Below are positions 1,447-15,876 of a stretch of 15,876 bases of DNA, one piece after another. Below the pieces are notes generated by a model. The model was not told the origin of the DNA. It saw only the letters and a program-made list of their open reading frames with translations, and did not search any database. This DNA is from a virus. Every line of letters starts with the position of its first letter. Position 1 is the first letter of the stretch. A program made the translations under genes and the position numbers. The stretch lies in the UHGV virus genome UHGV-0274280, one strand, 5' to 3'.

Positions 1447-1539
1447 ACAGTGAGATAGACGATTATTCTTGTCAAATTATCATCTGGTAGATCTAGTTAT
1501 TATTATGTACACCTAATACTTTGAAAACTATCTCACTGT
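1447..1539. repeat. perfect 12-bp inverted repeat pair (ACAGTGAGATAG at 1447-1458, CTATCTCACTGT at 1528-1539) flanking a 69-bp spacer
   Basis: Read directly from the sequence; lies in the 5' intergenic region of the recombinase gene. Confidence 0.7.
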
Positions 1540-1620
1540 CTTGCTAATAAACGGCAACCAAAATAATGTAAGTTATTTTGTAAGGTTTTAAGCCAAAATA
1601 TGGGGCCAAACTTTACATTT

Positions 1621-1935: not shown

Positions 1936-1955
1936 AACATGCCTCCCCAAATTAA

Positions 1956-2171
1956 CTAAGCAACATTATTTCGACTTGTTTCGATAACAGACTGAATCCA
2001 GGCATCAATCTCACTTTCGACGAAAGCTACTGCACGAGTTCCAATTTTGACAGGGGCAGGAAACTTACCATCTTTGATCAGACGATAGACCCAGGCTTTG
2101 CCGAAACCAGTTCGTTTCAAGACTTCGGGTAAACGAATTAAGCTTTGATTGGTTGTATCGGTTGTATTCAT
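1956..2171 (-). CDS. alpA: AlpA-family phage transcriptional regulator / excisionase-like HTH protein (71 aa)
   Basis: LIRLPEVLKRTGFGKAWVYRLIKDGKFPAPVKIGTRAVAFVESEIDAWI follows the AlpA pattern (RLPEV..TG.....Y......FP.P.K.G.R.....E...W). Strong RBS GGAGGAGG 7 nt upstream of the ATG at 2171. Confidence 0.75.
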   Translation of the reverse strand: MNTTDTTNQSLIRLPEVLKRTGFGKAWVYRLIKDGKFPAPVKIGTRAVAFVESEIDAWIQSVIETSRNNVA

Positions 2172-2337
2172 TTGGCTACCTCCTCCGCTTCCGTTACGAA
2201 GATATTAGCCACACAGATTCGTATCTATGAAGGGAATGCTGATAACTGAAAAGTTAGATGAGGGAATAATGAAAGGAAATTCCGGGGAAGAAAAATATTT
2301 ACGCCCTCCCCTTGACAATTAACATGATGATTTACAA

Positions 2338-3147
2338 CTAGAAAGATCCGAGTTCCGAAATCGGTATGTTGCGGAGATGGCTGTTTTTGCTGATAAAATA
2401 TTCCAGACTACGGGTTGTTTCGCCATTCAATGACTTCTCTGCAACAGGCCTATCTGTATCTTTAATGTGATCTTCTCCTCTGATCTCATTTGTAAAGTCG
2501 GGATACAAGACACGAGACAAGACCATATTTGAGATTTTTACTTTTTTAAACTTTGCCCAAATCAATAAATCCATCATTGGGATAATATTGTAATCGACAA
2601 GTTTTCTTATTTTTGCAAGTCCAATTTTTTCTGTTTTCACTGGCTCAATTTCATATTCTTTTCTAAGATCTGGTAGCATCGTTTGTAAGGCTGTTATAAT
2701 TTCTTCATCGCTGGACATTCCTAAATCAAATGAAACATACATCTTGCTGCTATTTTGGTTTAGAAAAAAGTCCCTCATAGTTTTTGTAATTGGTTTCTTT
2801 TTCAACTCTTTTTTGAAATCGCCATTTTCTTCAAAAAAATCCATGCTAAACATTATTAACTTGTTCTCTAATTTTTTTATATCACCAAAGCTAACTTGCG
2901 CAACATGCCTTTGGCCCTTGCCAAAATGACCATGATTATTATCTTGTCTGCTTAAAATAGGATTACCTTCAAGGATAGACCTTAAATTTTGATTATCATC
3001 TTCCCATCCAAAATTTACACTGTCGAAAATCGCTTCTCTAAAGGCAAGCTCAGTATGCAGTTCTTTGATTGTAAGTGATTTTAACTGCTCATAGTTTTCG
3101 AGACTAAACCAGCTTTTTAATTCTTCATAAGGGCTTACTACTTTCAT
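2338..3147 (-). CDS. hypothetical protein, orphan cargo gene (269 aa from first ATG at 3147; 276 aa if the TTG at 3168 is used)
   Basis: Long ORF in AT-rich DNA between the P4-type integrase and alpA; GGAGG about 5 nt upstream of the ATG at 3147. No family recognised by eye. Confidence 0.5.
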   Translation of the reverse strand: MKVVSPYEELKSWFSLENYEQLKSLTIKELHTELAFREAIFDSVNFGWEDDNQNLRSILEGNPILSRQDNNHGHFGKGQRHVAQVSFGDIKKLENKLIMFSMDFFEENGDFKKELKKKPITKTMRDFFLNQNSSKMYVSFDLGMSSDEEIITALQTMLPDLRKEYEIEPVKTEKIGLAKIRKLVDYNIIPMMDLLIWAKFKKVKISNMVLSRVLYPDFTNEIRGEDHIKDTDRPVAEKSLNGETTRSLEYFISKNSHLRNIPISELGSF

Positions 3148-3204
3148 TAATCCCTCCACTGTATTCAAAGCTTGAATGAGTTAACACTGCTTATTTGAAT
3201 TAAT

Positions 3205-3232
3205 TCTCCCTTAACAAGATTGATAAGGGAGA
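3205..3232 (-). terminator. putative hairpin downstream of the P4-type integrase gene (8-bp stem TCTCCCTT / AAGGGAGA, 12-nt loop)
   Basis: Inverted repeat 27 bp past the int stop, followed on the minus strand by A/U-rich but not U-run sequence, so a weak intrinsic terminator at best. Confidence 0.3.
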
Positions 3233-3258
3233 GCGATTGATCATCTACTTATTCATAG

Positions 3259-4509
3259 TTAACTCTTTTTAAAATCAAATGGTGAAACTTGTCGTATTCT
3301 AAGGAGGTCAAGGTAATCGGCCCACCACTGCAACATAAGCTTTCTCTCATCAAGGTGCTCTGCTTTATGTATGTACGCAGCACGAACTGAGTTCCGCTCC
3401 TGATGGCTCATTTGCCGTTCAACAGCATCTTTCGACCACAAACCGGATTCAATTAAAGCACTACAAGCCATAGCTCTGAATCCATGTCCACAGACCTCCA
3501 CGGTTGTGTCATAGCCCATAGACCTCAAAGCCTTGTTTACCGTATTTTCACTCATGGGCTTTCTGAAATCATGGTCGCCAATGAACACGAGTTCATGGTC
3601 ACCGCTGATCTCTTTAATTTCCGTCAACACAGCCAATGCCTGACAACTCAAAGGAACAAGGTGTGGAGTTCGCATTTTCGAACCACGATGCGAATGTTTC
3701 ACTCCGGGTAATGGCTCTCGCTCTGCAGGAATAGTCCACATGGCATTGTCGAAATCTATCTCTGACCAACGAGCAAACCTGAGTTCACTCGAACGAATAA
3801 AAATGAGCAATGTAAGCTTTACGGCTAACTTCGTGAGCTTTCTACCTTTGAATATTTCAATTCGCTCTAGGAGTTCAGAGAAGCGATCAAACGGTAATGC
3901 CGGTCGGTGGGTTCTTTTTGCTACAGCAATAGCCCCAGACATTTCTTGGGCCGGATTATAGTCAATTAAGCCATTCTGGACGGCATATCGCAAAATTGCT
4001 GTGGTTCGTTGTTGTAGACGGGCTGCTACTTCTAACCGTCCAGAAGCTTCAACAACCTTGATCGGAACGAGTAGATCCTTGGTTTTAAGCTCGGCTATTT
4101 TTCTCTTTCCTATGAAAGAGAAAAGGTTATCTTCAAGGCTCTTTAAAACCCTCTCACTATGGGAATCTGACCATTTCCTTTTACAGGCAGTATGCCAGTC
4201 CCTTGCAACAGCTTCGAATGTCAGGGCTTCGCTTTGCTCGATTTTGTCTGCTTTTTTCTTTTCTGAGGGGTCGAGACCAAGCGATACTAATTTTTTGGCT
4301 TCATCCCGTTTCTTGCGGGCTTCACTAAGAGAGACCATTGGATAAACACCCAATGCTAAAACTTTCTGTTTGCCATCGAAACGGTATTGGAGTCGCCAGT
4401 ACTTCGAGCCGTTAGGATTGATCAGCAGGTGCATACCCTGCCCATCGGTGAGTTTGAAGGGTTTGTCGGAGGGCTTGGTAGTCCTAACTTTGATATCGGT
4501 GAGAGCCAT
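3259..4509 (-). CDS. int: P4 / CP4-57-type tyrosine integrase (416 aa)
   Basis: N-terminal arm-binding region (KPSDKPFKLTDGQGMHLLINPNGSKYWRLQYRFDGKQKVLALGVYPMVSLSEARKKRDEAKKLVSLGLDP) typical of P4-like integrases; catalytic region with HGFRAMACSAL and ...RAAYIH. ATG at 4509 with GGAGG 9 nt upstream. Confidence 0.85.
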   Translation of the reverse strand: MALTDIKVRTTKPSDKPFKLTDGQGMHLLINPNGSKYWRLQYRFDGKQKVLALGVYPMVSLSEARKKRDEAKKLVSLGLDPSEKKKADKIEQSEALTFEAVARDWHTACKRKWSDSHSERVLKSLEDNLFSFIGKRKIAELKTKDLLVPIKVVEASGRLEVAARLQQRTTAILRYAVQNGLIDYNPAQEMSGAIAVAKRTHRPALPFDRFSELLERIEIFKGRKLTKLAVKLTLLIFIRSSELRFARWSEIDFDNAMWTIPAEREPLPGVKHSHRGSKMRTPHLVPLSCQALAVLTEIKEISGDHELVFIGDHDFRKPMSENTVNKALRSMGYDTTVEVCGHGFRAMACSALIESGLWSKDAVERQMSHQERNSVRAAYIHKAEHLDERKLMLQWWADYLDLLRIRQVSPFDFKKS

Positions 4510-4601
4510 CAGTTGATACCTCCAGTGTTGGTACCAAAATCAATCGAACCGGGAATACCATCAGTTATACCATCATCAGTTGGTATATGTTCAAGGAATT
4601 G

Positions 4602-4681
4602 AGTAGACGTAGACAGACTAAGAAAAGCCAGAAACCTGCTTAACTTACTGTTTTTATGGACTAAAGTAGACGTTAGTAGAC
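4602..4681 (+). repeat. direct repeats AGTAGACGT (4602-4610, 4665-4673) and AGTAGAC (4675-4681); putative arm-type integrase binding sites
   Basis: Three copies of the 7-mer core, two spaced 10 bp apart, between the integrase start and the tRNA-end fragment, where att arm sites are expected. Confidence 0.4.
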
Positions 4682-4698
4682 TTGAAAAAAGCTTTGTA

Positions 4699-4729
4699 TG
4701 GTGCCGAAGGCCGGACTCGAACCGGCACG
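4699..4729 (-). other. 31-nt tRNA 3'-end fragment (T-arm, acceptor 3' strand, CCA); leuX / tRNA-Leu-like; putative att core or direct repeat
   Basis: Reverse complement reads CGTGCCGGTTCGAGTCCGGCCTTCGGCACCA: T-stem GCCGG/CCGGC, T-loop TTCGAGT, CCA end. It matches my recollection of the last 31 nt of E. coli leuX. The upstream sequence does not supply the complementary acceptor 5' strand (GCCGAAG), so this is not a complete tRNA gene. Confidence 0.6.
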
Positions 4730-4862
4730 GGTTTAGGCGGCTTAGCTTGCTTCAATAATCATCGTTAACTCGTTGAACTAGCTAGAATAAAGCTCATAAC
4801 CCCGGCACATTTCACAGACTGTTTAGCCATGAAAAAGCCCCGACAACATAACCGGGGTTTGT

Positions 4863-6071
4863 ATGAGTTTCAAGAGAGATCGTTATCTAGTTTTAGATCC
4901 CTGCGGGAATTACCTCGTGCGGATAGCTATCCCCAGCTATATGCGTCACCTGTTCCAAGGGAAACGCTACTTTATGAAAAGCACAGGGACACGAGACATA
5001 CGGCAAGCGCGATTGTTTCGCGATGCTATTGCTCTGGAATGGACTCGCTTACGGAATCTGCTAAAGCCACAAGGCGGCTCATCTGTAGACCAAATCATTG
5101 ATGAGCTACGCCGTGTCAGTGTGTACGCCAAGGAAGCCCCCGCATCGTTTGGTGCATCGATTCAGGCTTGCCCTTCCTTGCTAAAAATGCGTGATTTGTA
5201 CCTGCTTCAATACAGCGAGAAGCGAAAGCTAACCACGCTATCCAAGACCAATAAAGCCGTAGAGGTGCTGTTAACCCACCTGAAAAAGAAAGATGTTCAG
5301 TTGCGAGATATTAACCGAACCATAGTTACAGGCTGGTTAGATAAACTCAAAACTGAGCGAGCGCCCCAAACCATCCAGAACTATATCAGTGCACTGGCGC
5401 AGATATGGGATTTGGCACGCAATCGCTATCACGATGCGCCACAGGATAACCCTTGGCGTGGTCATGCACTCGAAGCAAAAAGCAGCAAGGTCAGCTATGA
5501 AGTCTTCGCACCGGGAGAGCTGGCAAAGGTCTATACCTTGCTTGATGACGAGATGAAGGCGGTAACGGCTATTGGTGCTTACAGCGGTATGCGGATCAAT
5601 GAAATATGTACGCTGCGTGAGAGCAGTATTAAAACCATCGAGGGCGTTTTGTGCTTTGAGATCACCGAGGGGAAGACCAAGAGCGCGGCACGAATCGTCC
5701 CAGTACACAGCAAGCTAATCCCCCTCGTGAAATCATTGCTCAAAACCACACATAGCGGTTTTCTGTTCTATCACGCGTCAATTACAGACCGGGCGGATGG
5801 GAAGCGCTCAACGTGGCATACGCAGCAGTTCACACGGGCAAAGCGTAAAGCTCTTGGCGAACTTGCCGCAGAGAGAAAAGTGTTTCACTCACTCCGCCAT
5901 GCGTTTGTGCAACAACTCGACCGTGCTCAAGTGCCAGAAGATAGGATCGCTCTGCTTGTAGGCCACGAACGAGGTAGCACTGAGAGTTTTAAGACATATT
6001 CAAAAAACGCAGCATCCCCTTTAGAGATGCGCCGGTATATTGAATTAATAGATTATGAATTAATTAAATGA
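4863..6071 (+). CDS. int: tyrosine-type phage integrase (402 aa), different family from the P4-type one
   Basis: N-terminal YLVRIAIPSYMRHLFQGKRYFMKSTGTRDIRQARL pattern common to phage/island integrases; C-terminal HSLRHAF (H-x-x-R) and LLVGHERGSTESFKTYSK (candidate Tyr). Transcribed away from the tRNA fragment. Confidence 0.8.
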   Translation: MSFKRDRYLVLDPCGNYLVRIAIPSYMRHLFQGKRYFMKSTGTRDIRQARLFRDAIALEWTRLRNLLKPQGGSSVDQIIDELRRVSVYAKEAPASFGASIQACPSLLKMRDLYLLQYSEKRKLTTLSKTNKAVEVLLTHLKKKDVQLRDINRTIVTGWLDKLKTERAPQTIQNYISALAQIWDLARNRYHDAPQDNPWRGHALEAKSSKVSYEVFAPGELAKVYTLLDDEMKAVTAIGAYSGMRINEICTLRESSIKTIEGVLCFEITEGKTKSAARIVPVHSKLIPLVKSLLKTTHSGFLFYHASITDRADGKRSTWHTQQFTRAKRKALGELAAERKVFHSLRHAFVQQLDRAQVPEDRIALLVGHERGSTESFKTYSKNAASPLEMRRYIELIDYELIK

Positions 6072-6084
6072 AATGCTTAGAGAA

Positions 6085-6106
6085 GAAGCCGAATAATATC
6101 GGCTTC
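6085..6106 (-). terminator. putative intrinsic terminator hairpin (GAAGCCGA-ATAATA-TCGGCTTC) between the convergent integrase and 157-aa genes
   Basis: 8-bp GC-rich stem with 6-nt loop directly after the stop of the minus-strand 157-aa gene and 14 nt after the integrase stop; U-rich stretch follows on the minus-strand transcript. Confidence 0.4.
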
Positions 6107-6580
6107 CTATGCAGCCGCTTCTGTTATACGTTCTCGATATTGTTTAGCTTCATCTATCCACATTTGTATTGCTTCTTGATTGTCCCAATTTGCATGGGCA
6201 TCATGATCAATAAAATCAACAATATAGTAGTGCCTTGTACCTGAGAATACAAAATACGAATATATCAAATAGCTGTTACTTTTACATTTCCATTGTACCA
6301 GTGGATGCCCATTGTCATCCTCCCAGACACTGTCTTCCTGCCTCACATGTAGATGTGTTAAACCTTCTCTTTTCTGATGATACGGCTTATCTTCATCAAC
6401 ATTGTCCCTATCTCTGCCAAAGAGCAGCGAAATAGATGCAAAAAGTTTTTGGATGGAATATCGGGGGCGGGAATGCTCTGCACTTAGTTGCTTATAGCGA
6501 CAGAACTCCTGATAAAAAGGAAGAAACTCGCCATCATTGGCGAGTTTTTCACAGCAATCAAACTCAATTGCAAGCGGCAT
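6107..6580 (-). CDS. hypothetical protein (157 aa), AT-rich moron gene
   Basis: ORF whose ATG at 6580 lies inside the 3' end of the upstream small ORF; AT-rich relative to the flanking operon; no family recognised. Confidence 0.5.
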   Translation of the reverse strand: MPLAIEFDCCEKLANDGEFLPFYQEFCRYKQLSAEHSRPRYSIQKLFASISLLFGRDRDNVDEDKPYHQKREGLTHLHVRQEDSVWEDDNGHPLVQWKCKSNSYLIYSYFVFSGTRHYYIVDFIDHDAHANWDNQEAIQMWIDEAKQYRERITEAAA

Positions 6581-6719
6581 GTACTTTACTGTATTCAGCT
6601 AAACGCTCATCAGTTTCTCTGGAACTTTTACGCGCTACAGTACGCGTTGTCTTGATAAGAGCATTCAGAGCATCCCTACTCATACCAGTCGATACGGGGC
6701 TGATTTTCGCCTTTGTCAT
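6564..6719 (-). CDS. hypothetical small protein (51 aa; start chosen at ATG 6719)
   Basis: ATG at 6719 with AGGAGG 7 nt upstream (aacAGGAGGtacaatATG); its 3' end overlaps the start of the 157-aa gene by 17 nt. The ORF track extends it to 6758 without RBS support. Confidence 0.4.
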   Translation of the reverse strand: MTKAKISPVSTGMSRDALNALIKTTRTVARKSSRETDERLAEYSKVHAACN

Positions 6720-6780
6720 ATTGTACCTCCTGTTTTTCGGTGATTGGCCTGCACACATTGTAGGCAGTTATTTTAAGTGG

Positions 6781-6809
6781 AGATTACGCAATCTACATCA
6801 ATCCGTCAA
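6781..6809 (-). promoter_or_regulatory. candidate sigma70-like promoter for the 51-aa/157-aa pair (-35 TTGACG, 17-bp spacer, -10 TAATCT)
   Basis: Hexamers read on the minus strand about 60 nt upstream of the ATG at 6719; the -10 matches consensus at only 3 of 6 positions. Confidence 0.25.
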
Positions 6810-6896
6810 GAATTGTTTTAAATACGAGCAAGTAAATAGGCAGCCACAGCAACATGTAACCTCATGAAAATAAAATAAATAGAGCCATGACCAATG

Positions 6897-7325
6897 TTAT
6901 GCTGGATAAATAATACCCAGCCCCTTGTAGTGGCGGCGGTAGGCTGGTAGCATGAAATTCATGCTACCGGGTGAGAGTCCACACACCCGCCCTACATAAT
7001 AGCCACCCTCAGCAGCATTAGCAGAGCGATGCACCACAGCACGCACGCGCCCGGTTCGGTGGCAGTGATCCAGCACGGCAGACGCAAGGCGCAGCGGCTT
7101 ACCTGTCACCGCACAGCGTCGGTATTGATAATTCCACAGGAAGACACGGACAGCGGCCACATCAGCGCGGCGCAACTCCAGCCGCCCGGAACCATTCAAC
7201 AGGAAGCGATAAACATCTTCGAATGCAGCAGCGTTTGTAATCCGTTCCGCCAGTGGCATATTGCCAAGGTGTTCCAGATAGCCCCGCATAGCTTTTCTTA
7301 ATAGCTGGTCTGTCCGTGTAACCAT
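6897..7325 (-). CDS. endonuclease VII-like (T4 gp49-type Holliday-junction resolvase family) protein, divergent (142 aa)
   Basis: CAVTGKPL...LDHCHRTGRVRAVVHRSANAAEG resembles the Endo VII core (C..C...LDHDH..G.VRGLLC..CN.AEG) but the second Cys pair is replaced by His/Ala. Confidence 0.55.
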   Translation of the reverse strand: MVTRTDQLLRKAMRGYLEHLGNMPLAERITNAAAFEDVYRFLLNGSGRLELRRADVAAVRVFLWNYQYRRCAVTGKPLRLASAVLDHCHRTGRVRAVVHRSANAAEGGYYVGRVCGLSPGSMNFMLPAYRRHYKGLGIIYPA

Positions 7326-7597
7326 GATTCAAAGTCTCCATTGTCAGATGAAGCCCGCTTGCAGGCTTCATATTCTTCGCACTGGCGCTGGCGTACCAAA
7401 GCATAAAGCTCATCGGCCAACGCATTAACGCGTTCGTCACTGATACCATTGCGGCGCATTAGCCCCAGCAGCTTACGAAACTCAGCTTCAAGCTCAGGCT
7501 CTCCGGTATCTATTACCCACTGTTTCAGGTAAGCAAGTGTGCCAGTCATTGGCGGCGGCTCGATGTACCGCCACCTTAATTTAATTGTGGTTATCAT
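7298..7597 (-). CDS. hypothetical protein (99 aa from ATG at 7597)
   Basis: ATG at 7597 with GAGAGGA about 9 nt upstream; overlaps the neighbouring genes at both ends. The ORF track's longer start at 7645 lacks an RBS. Confidence 0.4.
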   Translation of the reverse strand: MITTIKLRWRYIEPPPMTGTLAYLKQWVIDTGEPELEAEFRKLLGLMRRNGISDERVNALADELYALVRQRQCEEYEACKRASSDNGDFESWLHGQTSY

Positions 7598-8006
7598 CTT
7601 CTTTATCCTCTCTGTAAGCCGGGTGCATTGCCCGGTATTGCTCAATGGTCAAACCCTCGCTGGCCGCTGTAAGCCGTTCCTTTTGCTTACCTGCCAATCG
7701 CAAGGCGCTATCTCTCCAGCAAAGCAGAAAGAAGACGGTCAGCACCTGCTTACTCAAGCCATCCAGAAGATCGCCAAGCCCTTGATCCAGCAGACAGACA
7801 CGCCATGCAGCGGCGTGCTCAGTCATAGCACCGACTATCGGGACAGGTGCGCCAAGCATCGTCGCAAGCTGACTCATAACACTATTAGCATCGCCCGGAT
7901 GCAGCCGGGGAATAGACATGCGGCCAGCCTGCGCCAACAGTTCAGCGTACCGCTGGCGGCGTGGGTCATCATCTGCCAGCGCTCTAATCGGCTTTTCATC
8001 AGCCAT
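7581..8006 (-). CDS. hypothetical protein (141 aa)
   Basis: ATG at 8006 with GGAGG 9 nt upstream, 18 nt after the HNH gene stop; no motif recognised. Confidence 0.5.
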   Translation of the reverse strand: MADEKPIRALADDDPRRQRYAELLAQAGRMSIPRLHPGDANSVMSQLATMLGAPVPIVGAMTEHAAAWRVCLLDQGLGDLLDGLSKQVLTVFFLLCWRDSALRLAGKQKERLTAASEGLTIEQYRAMHPAYREDKEDDNHN

Positions 8007-8024
8007 TAATGGAACCTCCGAGGA

Positions 8025-8534
8025 TTAGGCAGCCTGCAATAAATCGGCTGGCGTTGAGGGATGGCATCTGGCTTTAGCTTTTAGATAGGCAGCACGCGCC
8101 GCCACTTCGGTAGTAAATAAGCCAAGGTGACGGAGTACACCATCAACGCGTATGTAAGCCTCCCATTTTCTACAGCCCTTATTCCAGCTATACCCCCTTG
8201 CCTTGCGTCGGTTCTGGTCGTTTTCCCGCTGCGTAACCAAGCGCAGATTGCATAGGCGATTGTCGTCACGGATACCGTTGATGTGATCGATCTGCTTACC
8301 ATGAGGAATAGCGCCATGCGCAAGAATCCACGCCACGCGATGGGCTTTTAGCTGGTACTGCTTGCCATCAAGTCGCAGGGCAACTTGACGATAGCCATCA
8401 GCTCGCCGGGTGGAGTCAGCATAGGAGCCAGCCTTAACCCGGCGTCGGTTAGCTTTATGGTGCAGGCGGCCTGTCACCGGGTCATACAGGAAAAGGGAAC
8501 ACAGCAGCTCAGGGGCGTAAGCATCATTAACCAT
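8025..8534 (-). CDS. HNH endonuclease with AP2-like DNA-binding domain (169 aa)
   Basis: HRVAWILAHGAIPHGKQIDHINGIRDDNRLCNLRLVTQRENDQN is a typical HNH_3-type motif, followed by GYSWNKGCRKWEAYIRVDGVLRHLGLFTTEVAARAAY (AP2-like). GGAGG 9 nt upstream of the ATG. Confidence 0.75.
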   Translation of the reverse strand: MVNDAYAPELLCSLFLYDPVTGRLHHKANRRRVKAGSYADSTRRADGYRQVALRLDGKQYQLKAHRVAWILAHGAIPHGKQIDHINGIRDDNRLCNLRLVTQRENDQNRRKARGYSWNKGCRKWEAYIRVDGVLRHLGLFTTEVAARAAYLKAKARCHPSTPADLLQAA

Positions 8535-8550
8535 GACTCAGCCCCTCCAG

Positions 8551-9546
8551 TTATGCAGCTTGTCGGAAATTGATAACGCAGTCAGGACGACGCAGCCCAA
8601 CGTTGAACAGGCGATATGAGTCCATCACCATTGTCATTTCGCGTTCATCATCCCACTGGCGATTGATGACGCTCTGCGCTTCGACCGTCAGCAGCACAGA
8701 GGAAGGTTTAAACAGCGTCGCCCTCGTCATCGCTTCCTCTGCGGTAACGTCATAATCAGCGCCCAGTTCATGCCCGGTAATGACTTCCTGCGGGTAACTG
8801 TTCAGCTCAATGACTCGCACCCCAGCGACATAGCCAACGCGACGCCATGCGTAATCGTTGCCACTATCCCGGCTGTAACGGACGTTCATCAGCTTCTTAT
8901 GTTCCATCAGGATGCTGAACCATGCAGGGTCAATGAGAAGCACCAGCTCGGCCACCGGAATATCTTTCTCAGTGAGGAAGCGATTAGCAGCCGCTTTGAC
9001 GGCGTGAACCAATTCGTTTGCGGCGTCCTCTTCGCTCCCCGCTGTCAGGTCGAGCGAGACAACGTTATTCGTAAGCGGGTTAAACGTTGGTTGCAGTGTC
9101 GGCGGCGGTACAAAGTCAGTCGCTTTGATTAACTGGATGGTGTGCGCTTCGTCGTAGAACTTAGCGTGCGCAGTGCCGATATTGCGGCTCAGCTCTGCGC
9201 GAAATGTGGGTGCTGTCCAATCGTCCTGATAGTCAATCGGGACGCGGATATAACTCAGCGTATCCACAGAGATAACCAACTTGTCCGACTTAACGGCGGT
9301 AGGCTCCAGCGATTGCCCTGCGGTTCTGCCCTTCACCTCAAGATCACCACTCAGGCGATCAATGCGGTATTGGTTGCTGCCTTTCAGCGGCCTGTATGTA
9401 GACAGCCCCTCGGCCAGAAATACGGATTTGGACTCTAAACGGGTCTGGACATCCCGGTCATAAGCCTCGATGTGAATATCATTGTCGGATTCCACCCCGC
9501 CATAATGTGGGCGAAACAGATCGGGACTGTACGAAGTATCAGCCAT
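8551..9546 (-). CDS. major capsid protein homolog, T7 gp10-like (331 aa from ATG at 9546)
   Basis: By-eye block alignment to T7 gp10A from memory: KLVISVDTLSYIRVPIDYQDD...RAELSRNIGTAHAKFYDEA vs KVITIDGLLTADVLIYDIED...RSEYTSQLGESLAMAADGA, and FLTEKDIPVAELVLLIDPAWFSIL vs LTKNYVPAADRVFYCDPDSYSAIL. Similar length (T7 gp10A is 345 aa). AGGAG 8 nt upstream of ATG 9546; the ORF track start at 9591 has no RBS. Confidence 0.6.
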   Translation of the reverse strand: MADTSYSPDLFRPHYGGVESDNDIHIEAYDRDVQTRLESKSVFLAEGLSTYRPLKGSNQYRIDRLSGDLEVKGRTAGQSLEPTAVKSDKLVISVDTLSYIRVPIDYQDDWTAPTFRAELSRNIGTAHAKFYDEAHTIQLIKATDFVPPPTLQPTFNPLTNNVVSLDLTAGSEEDAANELVHAVKAAANRFLTEKDIPVAELVLLIDPAWFSILMEHKKLMNVRYSRDSGNDYAWRRVGYVAGVRVIELNSYPQEVITGHELGADYDVTAEEAMTRATLFKPSSVLLTVEAQSVINRQWDDEREMTMVMDSYRLFNVGLRRPDCVINFRQAA

Positions 9547-9744
9547 AAACAAAACTCCTACGTAGGTTGATGAAGCCCGCGCCATCGTCATGGCACAGAC
9601 GTGCGGAATCCTCCCGCCGAGGCAGGATTCAGAACGGTATCGATTAAAGGGATGAGGTGCCCCGAAATGGGCGTTTTGAGGCCAGAGCTGGCGCGGTTCT
9701 CAGGGGTTAGTGCGCGTGAAGTAAGGCGAACGTATTACCTTGCA

Positions 9745-10158
9745 TTAGTGCGCACTCATACGCGCCATGTTCAACACCTTCCGCACAGAGGTTTCAGACA
9801 CGCCAACCTTGCTTGCAATGTAACGATTCTTCTGGCCTTTTGCAGAGCGAACGATAATGTCAGCGCGTATCGCCTCAGTGATTACCTTGCGGGGTCTGGC
9901 TCGATTCTTCTCGTGCCGTTCACGTTCGCGCATCCGCTCGGCCATCTTCGGCGGCAGCACAGGGGAAAGCCCACGGCTAACGCCAGATGTGCGGGTGCCG
10001 GATGTGGCAGACCGTGCAACGATATAAACCGCTTCGTCTGGATTGAAAACGTGCGGCACACGCTCAGGGTAAACATGATCACATCTACCCAGCGGCAAGG
10101 CGAAATCCGGGCGCACGTCAGCGACACGCTCCACAGCATGGAAATTACAGGTACTCAT
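9745..10158 (-). CDS. HTH DNA-binding protein (137 aa); possible small terminase subunit or regulator
   Basis: C-terminal helix-turn-helix-like segment RYIASKVGVSETSVRKVL preceded by a basic stretch; GAGG 6 nt upstream of the ATG. Function not assignable from sequence alone. Confidence 0.45.
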   Translation of the reverse strand: MSTCNFHAVERVADVRPDFALPLGRCDHVYPERVPHVFNPDEAVYIVARSATSGTRTSGVSRGLSPVLPPKMAERMRERERHEKNRARPRKVITEAIRADIIVRSAKGQKNRYIASKVGVSETSVRKVLNMARMSAH

Positions 10159-10297
10159 TACGAACCTCGGTTAATTAAAAACAGGCTTTCAGATGCCGCG
10201 CAGAATGCGGCTTGCGGGGACTCATGCGCATAGATTGGTGTGGTAGTACCGGGTCGGTGCGCACTCGGTCTTGCAGGGCGCATTCCACAGTTGGGCG

Positions 10298-10978
10298 TTA
10301 GCGACCAGCACGTTTGCCAGCGGAGCGCTGCGCAACCAGAGCGCGGTATTGTTCATCGTACTGGCGATGGCCGGGGCCATACCCTGATTGCTGCGCCCAC
10401 TGCGAAAGCTGGTCATACGCTGCTATAAACTCAGCATGTGACATTCCGACAGGTTGCGCGGCAGTCTGGCCGTTCGGGACGTAACCGGTAATGGAACCGC
10501 CAGCCATACGCTCTTGCAGATACTGAACCGCACGCGACATCTGCGCGGGATCGCCAGACATGACCATCCGTTCAAGGGTTGATTGCGTCCCGGCGTCGAG
10601 CGTGCCAGCGTACTGCAACATCGCGTCAACTGTACCCTGACCTAGCTGGCTTTCGACAGACTGGTGAAACTGCCCCATCAGCCCATGAAGTTCAGGAGTC
10701 AACTCAACAGTGGTGCCATCCTGTAATTGCAGTGTGTCGCCCACTTGCGCCCCAGCGCTGTCAGCGTTCTGGTCTTGCTGATTTGCGATATTGCCATTAT
10801 TCCATTGTCCGCCATCATTGCCGTTAACGGGTTGGGTACGGAGGAAATCAGCATCAGCAGGCGCAGAGCTAAAGCGGGATGCTCCATTGTCAACTCCAAC
10901 AGGTGCAGCCATGTATGGCGATTGCTGCGATGCAGCATCAGCACCGGAAAGGTACGGATTAACATTCTGGTCAGACAT
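10298..10978 (-). CDS. acidic Q/N/G-rich low-complexity protein (226 aa); possible scaffolding or other assembly protein
   Basis: AGGAGA 7 nt upstream of the ATG; sits two genes upstream of the capsid gene. Composition is rich in Q, N, G, D and A. Confidence 0.45.
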   Translation of the reverse strand: MSDQNVNPYLSGADAASQQSPYMAAPVGVDNGASRFSSAPADADFLRTQPVNGNDGGQWNNGNIANQQDQNADSAGAQVGDTLQLQDGTTVELTPELHGLMGQFHQSVESQLGQGTVDAMLQYAGTLDAGTQSTLERMVMSGDPAQMSRAVQYLQERMAGGSITGYVPNGQTAAQPVGMSHAEFIAAYDQLSQWAQQSGYGPGHRQYDEQYRALVAQRSAGKRAGR

Positions 10979-10981
10979 AAA

Positions 10982-11221
10982 TTACTCTCCTGATAATGCT
11001 CTAAAGTCGTGTACCTGCGCTAACAACAGCATATGAACAGGCACACAACGTTCCGGCAGTTTGCGCACACCGTGATACGCTTTACCCATATCCCGACGAT
11101 CAACCTGATAGGCGTGGGCGAGGTCTGCCTGACTCACCTCAAGCGATTCAGAAATCAGCTTTAATTGTGCAGCCCAGTCTGTATTCTTGCGGGGCGGCAG
11201 CAATACGATAGTTTTGCTCAT
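10982..11221 (-). CDS. hypothetical protein (79 aa)
   Basis: ATG with GAGGA 6 nt upstream; its stop is 4 nt before the next gene's ATG. Confidence 0.4.
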   Translation of the reverse strand: MSKTIVLLPPRKNTDWAAQLKLISESLEVSQADLAHAYQVDRRDMGKAYHGVRKLPERCVPVHMLLLAQVHDFRALSGE

Positions 11222-11233
11222 GGTAATTCCTCG

Positions 11234-11470
11234 TTAAAGTAATCCACGTTTACGAAGCCAACGACGCTCACCAACGGAGCCGCGCGGGCGTTGTTTCGGA
11301 TTCTGGTTAAGTGTTTGGCTGGGGTCAGTTCGACCTTTCCCGGTCAGGTTCTGCGTCAGCACATCCCAACCCCGTGATTCAATCGGAGCGTATCCTTCGC
11401 GTTGTTCGTCAAGGTTCACGTAGAGATCAGGGTTAACGGCGGGGTGCAGCGGTTCGTTCTCTGCCATCAT
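11234..11470 (-). CDS. hypothetical protein (78 aa)
   Basis: Start ATG overlaps the stop of the upstream gene (ATGA), indicating translational coupling. Confidence 0.4.
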   Translation of the reverse strand: MMAENEPLHPAVNPDLYVNLDEQREGYAPIESRGWDVLTQNLTGKGRTDPSQTLNQNPKQRPRGSVGERRWLRKRGLL

Positions 11471-12030
11471 TCAGCCTCGCTGAATTTGGAGTTAACAGAC
11501 TCCAGAGTATCCGGGTACGACCAACGATTTCTCAGGCAGCGTTGCACATGCGCGACGACCTCAACAGGGACGCCCAGCTTCCCGGCGATCTCCGCAGCAG
11601 GCCAACCGAAGCGCTCTAACTTGTGGATTTCATCTAAATCAGTAGGCACTAACTTGCGCACTACTTTCGGCTTCGCTGGCTTCACCTTCAAGGGTTTCTG
11701 TACCGGGTGCGTGTGGGCGTTGCTAAAGCGGGAATGGGCGATAGCCAGCACCGTCTCAGGGCGAATCAGCATATCGCGGGCAATCATAAACTCTGTATCG
11801 CGGTGCAGCTTGCCGGGCTTATAGCGGCTGCGGATGGCGTTGTACTCCGCCAGATTAATATCAGCATCGTCTTTCCAATGTTCGGCCAAGTCATCGACAT
11901 AGGCGCCACGGATTACTGCATCAATATCGGTCAGGGTATGACCTGTCTCCGCTGCAATCTCTTCATTGTTCTTTAGGTGCTTATGAGCCAGCGCGTTAAT
12001 GCGCTGGATATCGGTAATACTCAAAGTCAT
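11467..12030 (-). CDS. putative DNA-binding protein (187 aa) with C-terminal sigma-70 region-4-like HTH
   Basis: DLDEIHKLERFGWPAAEIAGKLGVPVEVVAHVQRCL resembles a region-4/LuxR-type HTH; GGAG 9 nt upstream; ATGA overlap with the upstream ORF. Confidence 0.5.
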   Translation of the reverse strand: MTLSITDIQRINALAHKHLKNNEEIAAETGHTLTDIDAVIRGAYVDDLAEHWKDDADINLAEYNAIRSRYKPGKLHRDTEFMIARDMLIRPETVLAIAHSRFSNAHTHPVQKPLKVKPAKPKVVRKLVPTDLDEIHKLERFGWPAAEIAGKLGVPVEVVAHVQRCLRNRWSYPDTLESVNSKFSEAE

Positions 12031-12203
12031 AAATTAAACTCCGAATCAAATTTGATCTGGTCAGTAACCAACGTGTGAATCAGCGCAAGGCTTGACGCGG
12101 TGTGTGTGCCCGACTTGCGGGCGTTGTCGTACATGAAGCGGACTACACGTTGATATTTCTCCGGCAGCGTGGCGAACCATTGCCGGAACTGTTCAGGGGT
12201 CAT
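12027..12203 (-). CDS. hypothetical small protein (58 aa), absent from the ORF track
   Basis: MTPEQFRQWFATLPEKYQRVVRFMYDNARKSGTHTASSLALIHTLVTDQIKFDSEFNL; its start overlaps the upstream stop (caATGAcc) and its stop overlaps the downstream start (ttATGAct), closing an apparent 170-bp gap in the operon. Confidence 0.35.
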   Translation of the reverse strand: MTPEQFRQWFATLPEKYQRVVRFMYDNARKSGTHTASSLALIHTLVTDQIKFDSEFNL

Positions 12204-12409
12204 TGGTCGTCATCCTCCGGGAACACGTTGTTAAAGGTTGTATCAGGCGAGTCGGCGGCGTTCTGCTTGAGGAAGTTCACGCAGGATGACAACTCGGCAG
12301 CAGCCATGCGTGACTCTCCCGCCTCGTCCTCCTTAAGCCTGCGCGTCAACGCACCCAGCAGCAGGGTTTTTAGTTCCCATGCTCCGGCTTCAAATTCAGA
12401 TTTCGTCAT
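12200..12409 (-). CDS. hypothetical protein (69 aa)
   Basis: ATGA overlap with the upstream 145-aa gene; acidic C-terminus. Confidence 0.4.
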   Translation of the reverse strand: MTKSEFEAGAWELKTLLLGALTRRLKEDEAGESRMAAAELSSCVNFLKQNAADSPDTTFNNVFPEDDDQ

Positions 12410-12843
12410 TGGTGGTTATCTCCAACTGGTAACAGGCCTAGCGCACGGATGTGCTGAATCACTTCTTGATGCACGGGCTTCGGCAGAAACAAACGGCGGG
12501 CAATGGCGGCGTAAACTTCATCAGGAGTCTTGCGTACCGGATGCACCCGGCCATTGAAAACCCGGTCGGACAACCGGACGGCTTTCCAGCGACGCGAGCC
12601 ATCCGGCCTTTTCATGCGGTTCAGTACAGCGGCCAGACACTCCCACGGCTCGCAATCATTCAGCAGGCAATATCGCTCCAGCGGTGTAAATACCTCGCGA
12701 ATGATGGCCTCACGATTAAGGGTCTTGCGATGAGGTTCGGCCAGTTCATCCCAGTTGTACCCATTCAGGGCGAAAGCTAGTTGTGCGGTGATGAGCGCAT
12801 CCGCACGCGCAGCACGACGCTGCGCATGTTCGGTAACAGGCAT
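12406..12843 (-). CDS. hypothetical protein (145 aa)
   Basis: ATG at 12843 with GGAG 8 nt upstream, 37 nt after the helicase stop; no motif recognised. Confidence 0.5.
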   Translation of the reverse strand: MPVTEHAQRRAARADALITAQLAFALNGYNWDELAEPHRKTLNREAIIREVFTPLERYCLLNDCEPWECLAAVLNRMKRPDGSRRWKAVRLSDRVFNGRVHPVRKTPDEVYAAIARRLFLPKPVHQEVIQHIRALGLLPVGDNHQ

Positions 12844-12880
12844 ATGATTAACTCCAGAGAATCAGGGAGAGCCTTTCGAC

Positions 12881-14725
12881 TCAGAGGTATTTAGCGATGT
12901 ACTGCCAGTTGCAGTTTTCAGGGCGGTAGAAGTAAGCAAGCTCATCAGGCGCAACATCCAGCGCCAGCGATGACCACAGCAGAAAAGCGCGGGCAGGTTC
13001 CCCATCGCGCCCGGCTCGTCCAATCATCTGAACGAGATCAGGCAAATCATCGGGGACGTATGTCACGACAACGTTACGGATATCAGGAACATCAGCACCC
13101 AGCCCGAAGGCTTTAGTAGCAATAAGAATCGCGCCCGGCGTAGAGGCAAACCACTCAGCGTTTGCGTGGCGTTCCTCGTTGCTCAGGTGCATCGTCTTCG
13201 AGTGATATGGCCGCGCCCGGTCGCCCAAGAGTTTCAGGTACGCCCGCAACGTTTTAAGGTCATTGACGAGAATAAGCGTCTTCTCTTCTTTCGGCAGAGC
13301 CTCGACCAGACCAATAGCCGCTCGGAAACGTTCGCGGCACTGTCTGACTGGCGTCAACTGGATATTCTCGCGAGCAACATCAGCGCGGAATGTTACGTAA
13401 TCGCCACGGCAGCCAAGCGACTCCATTAAACTGCGCTCATTTTCGCGTAGCAGCGTAGCCGTAAACACGCAGCGTTGAGCCGAAGGAAAGGCATTCTGTA
13501 GTGTGTGCTGCATTGCGTCGTAAGCTGGGCGGAAATCCCAGTCTTTGACCGTGTGTGCCTCATCGATAATAAAACGATCAACGCCATAAGCCATCAGCGC
13601 CGCGAGAACCTGACTCGACGGAACCAGATGTTCAGGCGAAACGACTGCAACCCGGAACGCCCCGGCAGCCAGCCCCGCCAGTTGTTGCGCATTGCGGTGC
13701 CTCGGCAGCTTGTCACCAAATGCCACAGCGTGAACGCCAGCCTCCCGCAACTGGCGGAGAATCTGACGCTTAAGGGTATTAGTAGGAACAACGATAACAG
13801 ACAGGCCAACGCCAGCGCGGGATTCATAAATCAATGGGTAAGTGAAGGCAGCGCTTTTGCCATACCCAGTAGGCAGAACGGCAAGCACATCACTGCCACG
13901 GGAAAAGATCGCATCAGCAACAGACAATTGCCCCGGCCTCCACTCCAGCCCATCAGGTGGCAGCAGGCTAACGCGTGCGTTTCGGTCACAGCGAGCCAGG
14001 GGGCGGAACTCATACGGCGTAGTATTCAGTGGCGGCACAGACGGCGAAGCAGCCAAGCCGTTCGGGTCACAATGATGATTTGTATTATTAAATCTATCTT
14101 CGGTAGGCTTCGACTCTCCACACCAAAATTGACGAAACTCCCCTGAGTCTCCGTAGCGTTTGAAATCTGCGTTACGCATCGCTTCCAGTTTACCCATGCC
14201 CCTGTTAATTCGGCGCATGGTCTTCTCATCGCAAATGAGAAACTCGCGGCAGGCTTTGAGAAAAGCATTCTGTCCGGTTGTTGATTCCGGCACGGCGTGC
14301 TCGCGCGGTTTCAATGCGGCATCGTCTACGCGAACGCCGGGGAAATCTGGCGGCAGTGGTTCAACATAACGAGCAGGCTTTTTATTTAGCCATTGCTCAA
14401 TCTCAGCGCGTCGGCAGTGAATCGCGTCGCCGGGCTGGATGACTTGCCGCAACCCAGCGTCAGAGCGCTGTTTTTGTTTCTTCGGTTGAACACCGTGCAG
14501 CGTTCGCCACTCCCGCAAGGTCATCGCGGAGCCATCTGCATTGTAATAAAACTCTTCGGTCTTTGTGTTGTATGCCGCCTTAACGGGCTTACGCTTTACG
14601 GGGCATATCTTGGAACGTCGAATAACAACCCCGTCAGCGATCATTTGCTGTACATCTGCGTCCGCAGTATTGAGCGGGTCAGCGTCGGCAGCCTGCGCAA
14701 GCAGGCGGCGTAGGTTTGTTGGCAT
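12881..14725 (-). CDS. RecQ-family DEAH-box superfamily-2 DNA helicase with ~270-aa N-terminal domain of unknown function (614 aa)
   Basis: Walker A LAVLPTGYGKSAAF, motif II FIIDEAHTVKDWDFRPAY (RecQ signature DEAH...W..DFRP.Y), motif III VFTATL, C-terminal ILIATKAFGLGADVPDIRNVVVTYVPDDLPDLVQMIGRAGRDG. GGAG 8 nt upstream of the ATG. First gene of the operon. Confidence 0.8.
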   Translation of the reverse strand: MPTNLRRLLAQAADADPLNTADADVQQMIADGVVIRRSKICPVKRKPVKAAYNTKTEEFYYNADGSAMTLREWRTLHGVQPKKQKQRSDAGLRQVIQPGDAIHCRRAEIEQWLNKKPARYVEPLPPDFPGVRVDDAALKPREHAVPESTTGQNAFLKACREFLICDEKTMRRINRGMGKLEAMRNADFKRYGDSGEFRQFWCGESKPTEDRFNNTNHHCDPNGLAASPSVPPLNTTPYEFRPLARCDRNARVSLLPPDGLEWRPGQLSVADAIFSRGSDVLAVLPTGYGKSAAFTYPLIYESRAGVGLSVIVVPTNTLKRQILRQLREAGVHAVAFGDKLPRHRNAQQLAGLAAGAFRVAVVSPEHLVPSSQVLAALMAYGVDRFIIDEAHTVKDWDFRPAYDAMQHTLQNAFPSAQRCVFTATLLRENERSLMESLGCRGDYVTFRADVARENIQLTPVRQCRERFRAAIGLVEALPKEEKTLILVNDLKTLRAYLKLLGDRARPYHSKTMHLSNEERHANAEWFASTPGAILIATKAFGLGADVPDIRNVVVTYVPDDLPDLVQMIGRAGRDGEPARAFLLWSSLALDVAPDELAYFYRPENCNWQYIAKYL

Positions 14726-15114
14726 GGTGAAATCTCCAGAAAATAGGGGTAGGTATTAGCTCAGGTTGGGGCGGTGGTACAGGTGCGGCAGACTCTCTGC
14801 CCTTATAGAGGTTTTCATGTCGGCAACAGTGTCAGTGTCTTTATCTGCCTTAATAGTCACTTTCAAAATCGGAGAGTTTGTCGCGCTTCGGGAGTTATTC
14901 TTTCTCCTTAGTAGATACCTTCATTAGGTCAATTTTTAACCACAACCTCGCTAAGCCTTACTGAGCCTGGGCTGGCAATACTTAACAGCGCGATTTTTGT
15001 CGGTCAAAAGCGGGAAAGTAATGCTCTATATCTCCTTATTAGTAGCCTTTAAAATTAAAAATATAAGTTACTGATATCAATAGATAATTATGAAAGTGTC
15101 TATAGTGATATAGT

Positions 15115-15600
15115 ATCGCTAGATACGCAGAGCGAGCGCGGCGCAGCCGAAACAAGCGAGCGCCGAACTGATGACGGATGGCAGACCGTAGGACTGACAG
15201 ACGGCAGACAGTGAAGGCAGTAGGACAGGTGACAGACAGTAACCGTGACGGCGTGCCATAGCTGGCAGTAGCACAGCAGGCAGTAAGACCAATGACCGAC
15301 GGCTAAGACCTGAAAGGAAACGAAAAAGAAAGATGATTGAACGATACAGAAATGAATGAAGATGTTTTGAAGAATACCTACCGATAACAGTATATGATTG
15401 ATTAAATTAACAATACCGATAAAGAGTACCGTTCCACTACACATCCCCGCCGCGTTGCCTGCCACGGCAAGCACGGTTGCGTAGAGTCGCCGAGCATCAG
15501 CAGCGGGCGAAGACCGGGAATGAGCCAAAGGCGATGGAGCGGGCTGGAGCATAGCGAGAAGCGCAGCAAGTGAAGAGAGCGAAGCACTCGTAACTACATT
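15115..15600. repeat. T-depleted, purine-rich non-coding region with short degenerate repeats (GGCAG x5, GGCAGTA x3, GACAG x5, AGCGAGCGC x2, GCGAAG x3)
   Basis: About 10% T in sampled 60-nt lines between 15121 and 15300. GGCAG starts at 15180, 15203, 15216, 15264, 15279; GACAG at 15196, 15207, 15224, 15231, 15235. No ORF of 60 aa or more on the plus strand. Confidence 0.5.
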
Positions 15601-15876
15601 TAGGAGAAGGGATGTAAGGGAAGAACCCTTTCCTGTACATGTATTTCAAATGCAACTTTAAAGATACTACTAACGTGTTGACCAGCTTCAAATCTAGCTT
15701 AGTGATTGGACAACGCAGCCTTTGATCCCTTCCCCTGCCCCATCCCTCGAATTGTTCAGTGATAACTCACATTCACAATCTGATCTCGATGTTCATCGTC
15801 TGGCACGGCTAAAGCCCCGCCACCTCTTCACATCGAGAGCCGCAAGTAACACGAAAATACATTATAAATCATATCG

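Follow-up and report, generated by a model that had tools for sequence, protein, structure and literature searches.

Known Gram-negative satellites exploit temperate phages or, in Vibrio, the virulent phage ICP1, and no description of a satellite of the Autographiviridae, the T7/phiKMV group, was found in full-text literature searches. The element considered here is an island carrying a capsid gene in the viral sequence UHGV-0274280, a stretch of 15,876 nucleotides that was analyzed as a whole and is called the window below; coordinates are those of the window unless another locus is named. With a probability of roughly 70%, the sequence comparisons identify the island as an undescribed integrative satellite of virulent podophages of the genus Bonnellvirus (Autographiviridae, genome ~42 kb). 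The initial annotation of the window had proposed a capsid-encoding satellite and had remarked that a T7-like capsid would be unusual in such an element, a remark that stands in view of the literature searches. A preprint (PMC12458937) describes leuX satellite-like defence islands in general terms and leaves capsids unmentioned.

Like P4, the island is an integrative element about one third the size of its presumed helper, with a putative copy of a helper DNA-end/packaging site, a need for the helper portal, terminase and tail, and hotspots for defence genes. P4 is 11.6 kb long and its helper P2 33.6 kb. However, P4 has no capsid gene and reshapes the P2 capsid through the external scaffold Sid, and its helper is a temperate, cos-ended myophage, whereas that of the island would be a podophage that is virulent, has terminal repeats and brings an RNA polymerase of its own. 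The P4 core genes sid, psu, delta, epsilon, alpA and the alpha primase-helicase had no Pfam or PHROG match in any open reading frame (ORF) of the island.

The head genes of those phage-inducible chromosomal islands that form capsids (cf-PICIs) include portal, protease and head-tail connector genes. The island resembles the cf-PICIs in having its own HK97-fold capsid protein, an HNH endonuclease, a length of ~15 kb and Enterobacteriaceae as hosts. In contrast to them, it has a capsid protein of podophage type, a short scaffold, a fragment of the small terminase (TerS) and the HNH gene, without portal, protease or connectors; cf-PICIs are stated in one report to encode all the proteins for small capsids and DNA packaging and to take only tails from the helper (10.1101/2022.09.08.507074). 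With the classical PICIs, such as the SaPIs, the island shares an integrase, attachment (att) sites, a length of ~15 kb, a TerS-related gene, a satellite to helper ratio of ~0.35 and, presumably, interference with helper packaging. The PICIs differ in being de-repressed by helper proteins through Stl/AlpA circuits, in Pri-Rep replication and in having temperate siphophages as helpers; in the island, expression appears to depend on promoters for the helper RNA polymerase. AlpA, a Stl-like repressor and a primase or Rep protein had no match in the island in Pfam and PHROG searches, and the candidate replication protein is a DpdF-like SF2 helicase.

The PLEs of ICP1 are, as the island would be, satellites of a strictly virulent phage, with nucleases, a scaffold-type protein, a role in population defence and small heads, which the PLEs make and the island would make. 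However, the PLEs lack a capsid gene and have no sequence relation to the island proteins, their host and helper families are different, and they use the ICP1 capsid protein with their own external scaffold TcaP, as given in the title of PDB entry 8g1r. The PLE families RepA, TcaP, NixI and LidI gave no suggestive match in the general Pfam and PHROG scans, in which PLE-specific models were not applied. Compared with the PICMIs, the island is larger (14.6 kb) and has capsid and scaffold-like genes. Finally, plasmids carrying a T7 promoter-type origin and the concatemer junction were reportedly replicated and packaged by infecting T7 (Chung and Hinkle, 1990). This is the same pair of cis elements, a promoter-type origin and a genome end, that appears to be mimicked in the island, but the plasmids were artificial, had no morphogenetic proteins and were packaged as head-full-sized multimers. 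The island is intermediate between satellites that remodel helper capsids and the cf-PICIs, which encode the whole head.

Limits of the island

The window is a piece of E. coli chromosome from around leuX (tRNA-Leu), and positions 6800-15876 are 100% identical to strain EC09 (NZ_CM169492.1). The left end of the island is marked by the following feature.

4699-4729, no strand: 31-nt repeat of the tRNA-Leu (leuX) 3' end, distal att site

The feature had been proposed to start at 4863, which was not borne out, the end lying at this repeat. In EC09 the exact 31-nt repeat occurs as a pair 14,625 nt apart, the second copy being the genuine leuX; therefore, the capsid island is one att-flanked unit. 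The window holds positions 4699-15876 of it, ~11.2 kb of 14.6 kb or about three quarters. Matches to window 1-4729 in other E. coli genomes stop in tRNA-Leu, which that sequence abuts directly there, and window 1-4698 is a separate, unrelated leuX island in tandem.

Neither the window, scanned with Pfam and PHROG, nor the 3.4 kb of EC09 between the window end and tRNA-Leu contains portal, large terminase (TerL), tail or lysis genes, in agreement with the initial annotation; an ordinary prophage would have had a contiguous module of this kind past 15876. The 3.4 kb hold a serine recombinase gene and three unrelated cargo genes of low GC content only. DNA polymerase and RNA polymerase genes are likewise absent from the island. 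What remains is a discrete, att-flanked, mobile 14.6-kb element without a complete set of virion genes, as expected of satellites in general.

Capsid, scaffold and small-terminase homologs

Three island proteins correspond to phage head and packaging proteins.

8551-9546, minus strand: major capsid protein, 331 aa, HK97 fold, phiKMV/Bonnellvirus type (phrog_267, E 7e-71)
10298-10978, minus strand: short scaffolding-protein homolog, 226 aa, with C-terminal homology to the 408-aa phage scaffold
12200-12409, minus strand: truncated small-terminase homolog, 69 aa, matching the N-terminal half of the 101-aa TerS (T7 gp18 family)

The capsid protein matched solved podophage capsids in the PDB over its full length (E 1e-79 to 1e-57), among them 23sf, 8eld and 8vb0 (E 1e-79 to 1e-61; phmmer E 1.5e-79 over residues 1-324). 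The AlphaFold model had a mean confidence (pLDDT) of 78.8, and the top Foldseek matches were HRP29 (E 1e-31), PhiM1 and T7 gp10 (E 5e-14). These sequence and structure matches to podophage and T7 capsids confirm the HK97 fold and, at the level of the fold, the earlier label of a T7 gp10-like capsid. The closest relatives, however, are of the phiKMV type, in the Bonnellvirus coliphages forsur, glasur, Lidtsur, LF82-23 and J8-65 (54-56% identity).

The capsid gene is under purifying selection (dN/dS 0.07-0.16). Three deep lineages of island capsids were found, 58-61% identical among themselves versus 48-57% to phage capsids. No phage capsid comes as close to the island capsids as these do to one another, which speaks for a satellite capsid with a long evolution of its own and against a fragment recently taken from a phage.

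A scaffold and a small terminase had been guessed at, and profile comparison supports both. In the 226-aa protein, the last 100 residues align over their whole length with the C-terminal end of the phage scaffold; BLASTP aligned them with residues 309-407 of the 408 in the LF82-23 scaffold (E 2e-4), and hhalign gave a probability of 90.9% (E 1e-6). The AlphaFold2 model of the protein had a pLDDT of 47.7, too low for a fold search, with a disordered N-terminal half and only the C-terminal helices at 181-223 predicted confidently. The scaffold-like family was found in Enterobacteriaceae chromosomes only. Distant scaffold-like genes on two JGI contigs (L033 and L034; loci used for comparison carry L numbers) were not used because they are fragmented, probably through assembly errors.

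The 69-aa protein matched PF11123 (DNA_Packaging_2, E 0.003), the Lidtsur TerS (47% identity over 45 aa) and, by BLASTP, the LF82-23 TerS (E 2e-5). The hhalign probability against TerS was 89.5% (E 2e-6), and the family hidden Markov model (HMM) matched the TerS of five phages.

Phage left-end sequence and promoter motifs

The 1.26-kb non-coding stretch upstream of the helicase gene was compared with the phage collection. The helicase gene opens the operon, and the stretch contains the following features.

12881-14725, minus strand: SF2 helicase, 614 aa (DEAD and Helicase_C, Pfam E 1e-21 and 5e-14; DpdF-like), at the head of the operon
14847-14866, minus strand: phage-promoter-like motif TTGAAAGTGACTATTAAGGC, 20.1 bits, 141 nt upstream of the helicase ATG, in sense
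14905-14924, minus strand: phage-promoter-like motif ATGAAGGTATCTACTAAGGA, 25.7 bits, 199 nt upstream of the helicase ATG, in sense
15063-15225, no strand: copy of a non-coding Bonnellvirus left-end block, weaker similarity spanning 15062-15291
15090-15109, plus strand: phage-promoter motif ATGAAAGTGTCTATAGTGAT in the copied block, 23.4 bits, facing away from the operon

The 163-nt block is identical at 162 of 163 positions to LF82-23 and at 159 of 163 to mellemsur, while the proteins of the same pairs are only ~55% identical. The 1.26-kb stretch matched 16 phage records over 165-230 nt at 87-98%, all of them of Bonnellvirus type except for one marginal match. In the phages the block lies in the non-coding junction between the endolysin gene, the last late gene, and the SAMase gene, the first early gene. 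With the terminal repeats placed as annotated in J8-65 (259 bp), its distance from the left end is ~350-550 nt, immediately inward of the repeat, in a stretch that differs among Bonnellvirus phages. The version in the island of strain E2348/69 matches glasur best (96%); since this copy fits glasur while that of the window fits LF82-23, islands and phages appear to have exchanged the left-end block more than once. For two Enterobacter islands, L006 and L004, the non-coding DNA had no phage match that was informative.

A motif, ATGAARGTRWCTRYWWDGG, recurs in Bonnellvirus genomes: it follows the RNA-polymerase gene, precedes the replication genes, lies within an internal-virion gene and, in leftward orientation, occurs close to the left end. 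LIMEzero has homologous sites, annotated as "putative phage specific promoters"; the motif emerged from the LIMEzero comparison and fuzzy matching, Lidtsur having no exact repeats of at least 12 nt. A position weight matrix (PWM) was built from 12 phage sites, which scored 22.7-28.3 bits. In four phage genomes it found exactly five sites each of at least 22 bits and none between 15.1 and 22 bits. In the island three sites scored at least 20 bits, two in sense upstream of the helicase gene and one inside the copied block. The best score in 34 kb of flanking chromosome was 17.3, and simulated sequences gave an expectation of 0.003 sites of at least 20 bits per island.

The motif in the block, ATGAAAGTGTCTATAGTGAT, is identical to the LF82-23 sites at 25618, which follows the RNA-polymerase gene, and at 4934 (minus strand), which belongs to the left end. 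The position of the TTGAAAGTGACTATTAAGGC site is conserved in L023, L024 and L032, and in most of the remaining main-clade islands the corresponding place holds an array of related motifs with varying scores. The window has two weaker copies as well, at ~15031-15053 and 14795-14818. In L025 and L004 the matrix found no upstream motif above 10 bits. No sigma-70 consensus was found upstream of the operon, and scans for sigma-70 promoters and terminators performed no better than on shuffled sequences. A CACTATAG core on the operon strand was considered as a T7-like promoter and rejected, the conserved ATGAAAGT motif placing the site on the other strand.

Among the phages, two groups of promoters were seen, with GTAACTGT in J8-65 and Lidtsur and GTGTCTAT in LF82-23 and mellemsur. 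All four have one leftward copy ~520 nt from the left genome end, and the DNA between it and the terminal repeat is hypervariable among them.

Genome terminus

A 46-nt terminus motif, CCCGGCTTGAAAAATTGCACGYTTATGGTTGCNCCTCCC followed by TCRAC, occurs once in every main-clade island and once per Bonnellvirus genome. In the phages it lies 41-88 nt past the endolysin stop codon and ends exactly at the start of the J8-65 terminal repeat, with GC-rich sequence resembling a direct terminal repeat (DTR) next to it. In the EC09 locus (L001) it is found at 30037-30080, where it precedes the recombinase gene by 272 nt; its distance from the end of the window is ~960 nt. In the direction of the operon the order is thus terminus site, DTR-like sequence, recombinase gene, left-end block with its leftward promoter, rightward promoters and operon. 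As judged from this order, the layout of the island is that of the phage left end with a recombinase gene inserted, and the island is taken to carry the DNA-end/packaging signal of its helper.

The serine recombinase gene lies at 29190-29765 of L001, ~110 nt past the window end, and at the same position in L004-L032. In every island it stands between the terminus-like site and the promoter region, in one of two alleles that are 26-36% identical. The enzyme could serve multimer resolution, excision or inversion.

Proposed life cycle

The layout of a capsid-encoding satellite is supported by the att-flanked unit, the constrained capsid, the scaffold and TerS homologs and the copied phage cis sequences. 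Two further genes enter the scheme.

4863-6071, plus strand: tyrosine integrase, 402 aa (DUF6538 and Phage_integrase; Pfam E 7e-17, phrog_1 E 3e-35)
6897-7325, minus strand: Endonuclease VII-type junction resolvase, last gene of the operon (PF02945 E 4e-6, phrog_423 E 1e-15)

Upon infection, the single-subunit RNA polymerase of the helper would transcribe the operon from helicase to Endo VII from the mimicked promoters; if the operon is read by the helper polymerase, no repressor would be needed and expression would be specific to the helper. The integrase, perhaps with the serine recombinase, would excise the island. In T7, a phage promoter beside an AT-rich stretch works as an origin. The helicase and the helper replication proteins may copy the circle from the promoter-containing block to give concatemers with one terminus site per unit, and Endo VII, the counterpart of T7 gp3, would trim branches. 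Cutting at the mimicked terminus would fall to the helper terminase, steered or blocked by the short TerS homolog. The satellite capsid protein and the short scaffold would assemble around the helper portal and core proteins, and helper tails would complete the heads. The resulting small heads, probably T=4, would have room for ~15 kb but not for 42 kb. The yield of helper would drop, and the island and its defence cargo would spread together.

For both P4/P2 and SaPI1/80alpha the satellite to helper ratio is also ~0.35, with T=4 versus T=7 heads. Because the island has a private capsid protein, a short scaffold, a tightly held size of 15 kb and the 0.35 ratio of P4/P2, small heads are the most economical reading; even so, we regard the chances of a small, self-made head as evenly balanced. 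That the island stands for a new satellite family, combining mimicry of helper RNA-polymerase promoters, mimicry of the genome end and its own small heads on the helper portal, core and tail, is slightly favored.

If correct, this would represent a new way of sensing a helper, through promoters read only by the phage RNA polymerase, and a new division of labor in head assembly, in which the portal comes from the helper and the capsid and scaffold from the satellite. Defence genes would moreover have a means of passing among Escherichia, Enterobacter, Klebsiella, Citrobacter and Cronobacter. The T7/phiKMV group is much used in phage therapy, and the island could make therapeutic phages of Bonnellvirus type less effective against E. 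coli with a related copy (~1% of genomes). The hypothesis is directly testable, since E2348/69 carries the island and the candidate helpers grow on E. coli K-12.

Alternative explanations

Several observations weigh against a satellite of Bonnellvirus phages. The homologies of the scaffold and TerS proteins are moderate (hhalign ~90%), and both proteins, being truncated, could act purely as poisons. The terminus motif is situated outside the window, and the physical genome end is known solely from the repeat_region annotation of J8-65. The assignment of the promoters depends on the position of the motif in the phages and on the "putative" LIMEzero GenBank annotation, and the promoter copied within the 163-nt block faces away from the operon, as its phage counterpart does. 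The LF82-23-type block is missing from L006, L008 and L025-L030, whose non-coding DNA matches no phage of the collection. The distant lineage L004 has neither the 46-nt terminus motif nor, in the 500 nt upstream of its helicase gene, any strong promoter site; because both are missing, its helper is probably a different podophage. One IMG/VR contig (L032) carries the island, but it includes chromosomal flanks and is therefore not evidence of encapsidation. Induction, excision, packaging and transfer of the island, the use of its capsid on the helper portal and the smaller shell are all deductions from sequence. For helper-dependent induction, packaging and transfer, the support is indirect and comes from the phage-promoter motifs, the constrained size and the near-identity between genera.

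The possibility was considered that the island serves defence only, the capsid, half-scaffold and half-TerS being decoys or dominant-negative subunits that poison Bonnellvirus assembly and packaging, while the island itself is not packaged and spreads by other means. The truncation of the scaffold and TerS homologs would fit this, the phage-promoter motifs would give expression triggered by infection, the cargo slots hold defence genes (restriction-modification (R-M) systems, AbiTii and a toxin), PADLOC classes the helicase family as defence, and assembly-blocking defences are reported in PMC10884400. A pure decoy, however, needs neither a copy of the helper terminus nor a near-identical left-end block, and its capsid protein would not have to be full length and conserved throughout, as that of the island is. 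Nor would a size of 14.5-15.2 kb be expected to stay constant as the cargo changes, and near-identity between genera, in an element in which conjugation genes were not found, requires some vehicle for transfer. We consider this explanation unlikely. Also unlikely, and ranked just below it, is a satellite without small heads, which would travel as a head-full-sized multimer, or under-filled, in normal T=7 capsids of helper type and would use its capsid gene for another purpose: the protein could replace that of the helper, escaping capsid-sensing defences or excluding helper DNA. Marine satellites are packaged as concatemers in full-size heads (PMC9618062), no size-determining factor was identified in the island, and three units (3 x 14.7 kb, ~44 kb) come near the 41-42.5 kb of the helper genome, although they exceed it by ~4-8%. 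T7-type packaging cuts at specific termini, of which there is one per island unit, so monomers are expected, and unless head assembly is altered it is difficult to account for a dedicated capsid together with a scaffold of half length.

A decayed temperate T7-like prophage that kept a few genes by chance would account for an integrase beside a tRNA gene and for phage-derived capsid, Endo VII, HNH and TerS-like genes. When island proteins were compared with six podophage genomes by tblastn and family HMMs, however, only capsid, TerS, Endo VII and HNH matched, and no portal, tail or polymerase pseudogenes were found. At least 12 loci of several genera share the gene set, its order and the size, the capsid gene is under purifying selection, and the island capsid lineage is old and separate from those of phages. 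Moreover, the announcement of LF82-23 (PMC12509680) reports no integrase or repressor gene in any isolated phage, and its authors judged all of these isolates virulent. Such a remnant is therefore very improbable, and an integrative satellite of virulent Bonnellvirus phages is preferred to all three.

Distribution, cargo and mobility

Related copies of the island were present in 60 of 5,426 complete E. coli genomes (~1%), one in each. The same core gene order was found in Escherichia, Enterobacter, Kluyvera, Kosakonia and Trabulsiella, in at least 12 syntenic loci. The species with this gene order include Enterobacter cloacae, E. hormaechei, E. chuandaensis, E. bugandensis, E. intestinihominis and Kluyvera ascorbata, and the scaffold-like gene was additionally seen in chromosomes of Klebsiella, Citrobacter, Cronobacter and Phytobacter. 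A complete island lies at leuX in the enteropathogenic E. coli reference strain E2348/69 (L035, NZ_CP059840.2 4266025-4281006). From att to att, ten islands measured 14,471-15,158 nt despite differing cargo, ~0.35 of the helper genome, and the att-flanked unit of conserved size was seen in at least seven genera. Island-length contigs in several assemblies were not counted as circular forms, since an att repeat in the assembly graph can produce them.

Over 9 kb, the copies in EC09 and Enterobacter chuandaensis show 97.65% identity. This is far above the level expected for the chromosomal genes of separate genera and indicates a recent transfer between the two. Conjugation genes were not found among the island ORFs with Pfam and PHROG. 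Identity to the window also differs from gene to gene, the TerS-like protein and the helicase being 100% versus 93% identical in L027 and 69% versus 74% in L006. Such variation, compared across L023-L032, indicates frequent recombination among the islands.

There are only two variable slots, one beside the integrase gene and one beside the tRNA gene. The former, between Endo VII and the integrase (window 6107-6758), is a cargo hotspot that holds a YafO toxin, an R-M system or AbiTii.

6107-6580, minus strand: YafO-like toxin in the variable cargo slot (PF13957 E 2e-10)
L006 (E. cloacae) 12693-14725: Eco47II R-M system in the integrase-side slot
L008 (Logan contig) 11528-13679: NmeDI-like R-M system in the integrase-side slot
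L035 (E2348/69) 2873-3775: AbiTii in the integrase-side slot

A possible partner ORF of 51-64 aa lies upstream of the toxin gene, at 6564-6758. The distant lineage L004 (Enterobacter hormaechei, Logan SRR35738729) has a capsid 58% and a helicase 42% identical to those of the window, carries an extra Rha-family gene and has its HNH gene upstream of the helicase gene.

Other genes of the island

The genes named by the initial annotation (integrase, helicase, small overlapping ORFs, HTH protein, capsid, HNH and Endo VII) were all found with Pfam and PHROG at the positions given for them. Their arrangement as one leftward operon holds from helicase to Endo VII but does not extend to the integrase gene, which is convergent, with the toxin gene in between; being on the plus strand, it lies outside the operon. 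On the minus strand the operon runs from the helicase through seven small overlapping ORFs, the 226-aa protein, the helix-turn-helix (HTH) protein, the capsid, HNH_3 and two small proteins to Endo VII. The genes not listed above are as follows.

7298-7597, minus strand: 99-aa conserved protein, no Pfam or PHROG family match, annotated in EC09, 43-98% across all islands
7581-8006, minus strand: 141-aa conserved protein, no Pfam, PHROG or PADLOC family match, 83-96% in the main clade
8025-8534, minus strand: HNH_3 homing-type endonuclease, adjoining the capsid gene (PF13392 E 9e-19, phrog_99 E 8e-53)
9745-10158, minus strand: HTH protein, 137 aa, variable slot, weak HTH_23 match (E 4e-4)
10982-11221, minus strand: 79-aa conserved protein, no family match, 35-99% across all 12 syntenic loci
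11234-11467, minus strand: 77-aa protein conserved among syntenic loci, no family assigned
11467-12030, minus strand: 187-aa conserved protein, weak HTH signal (phrog_3855 E 6e-4)
12027-12203, minus strand: 58-aa protein conserved among syntenic loci, no family assigned
12406-12843, minus strand: 145-aa protein conserved among syntenic loci, no family assigned
15721-15876 (start), no strand: non-coding block (~265 nt) conserved among islands, adjoining the serine-recombinase gene

The integrase is 95-97% identical in 10 of the 12 syntenic loci and ~37% identical in the other two, L004 and L025. The Endo VII family HMM matched the Endo VII genes of six podophages. The closest relative of the island HNH protein in the phage set is the phiKDA1 HNH (L019 24242-24718, E 3e-34), which is situated between the scaffold and capsid genes; the island enzyme, encoded beside a capsid gene, might cut helper DNA near the capsid locus of the helper. 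The 137-aa HTH gene occurs in only 4 of the 12 loci, and the other islands have an unrelated gene of 115-160 aa at the same place.

The helicase matched the PADLOC DpdF model PDLC02858 with 916 bits (E 1e-276). Membership of the Dpd system of 7-deazaguanine DNA modification and restriction was rejected, as the helicase alone matches, without DpdA/B/C or DpdD-K. PADLOC found no other dpd gene in the island, and its sole other match was a homing-endonuclease model for the HNH protein. The model PDLC02858 appears to have been built from the present island family and could yield false partial "dpd" calls.

A 150-aa ORF at 15100-15552 on the minus strand is almost certainly spurious; it lies in the repeat-rich non-coding block that the island shares with phages, and RefSeq does not annotate it. 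ARAGORN found no tRNA in the window, and an Rfam scan of the window gave no match. The ~265-nt block shows 89-93% identity among EC09, L006 and L008, measured across the 262-268 nt that directly follow the recombinase gene.

The tandem island to the left (window 1-4729) has a low GC content of 31-37%, and the partial leuX copy at its end is the distal att of the capsid island. It contains the following genes.

136-1338, minus strand: further tyrosine recombinase
2338-3168, minus strand: DUF6387 protein
3259-4509, minus strand: P4-type integrase

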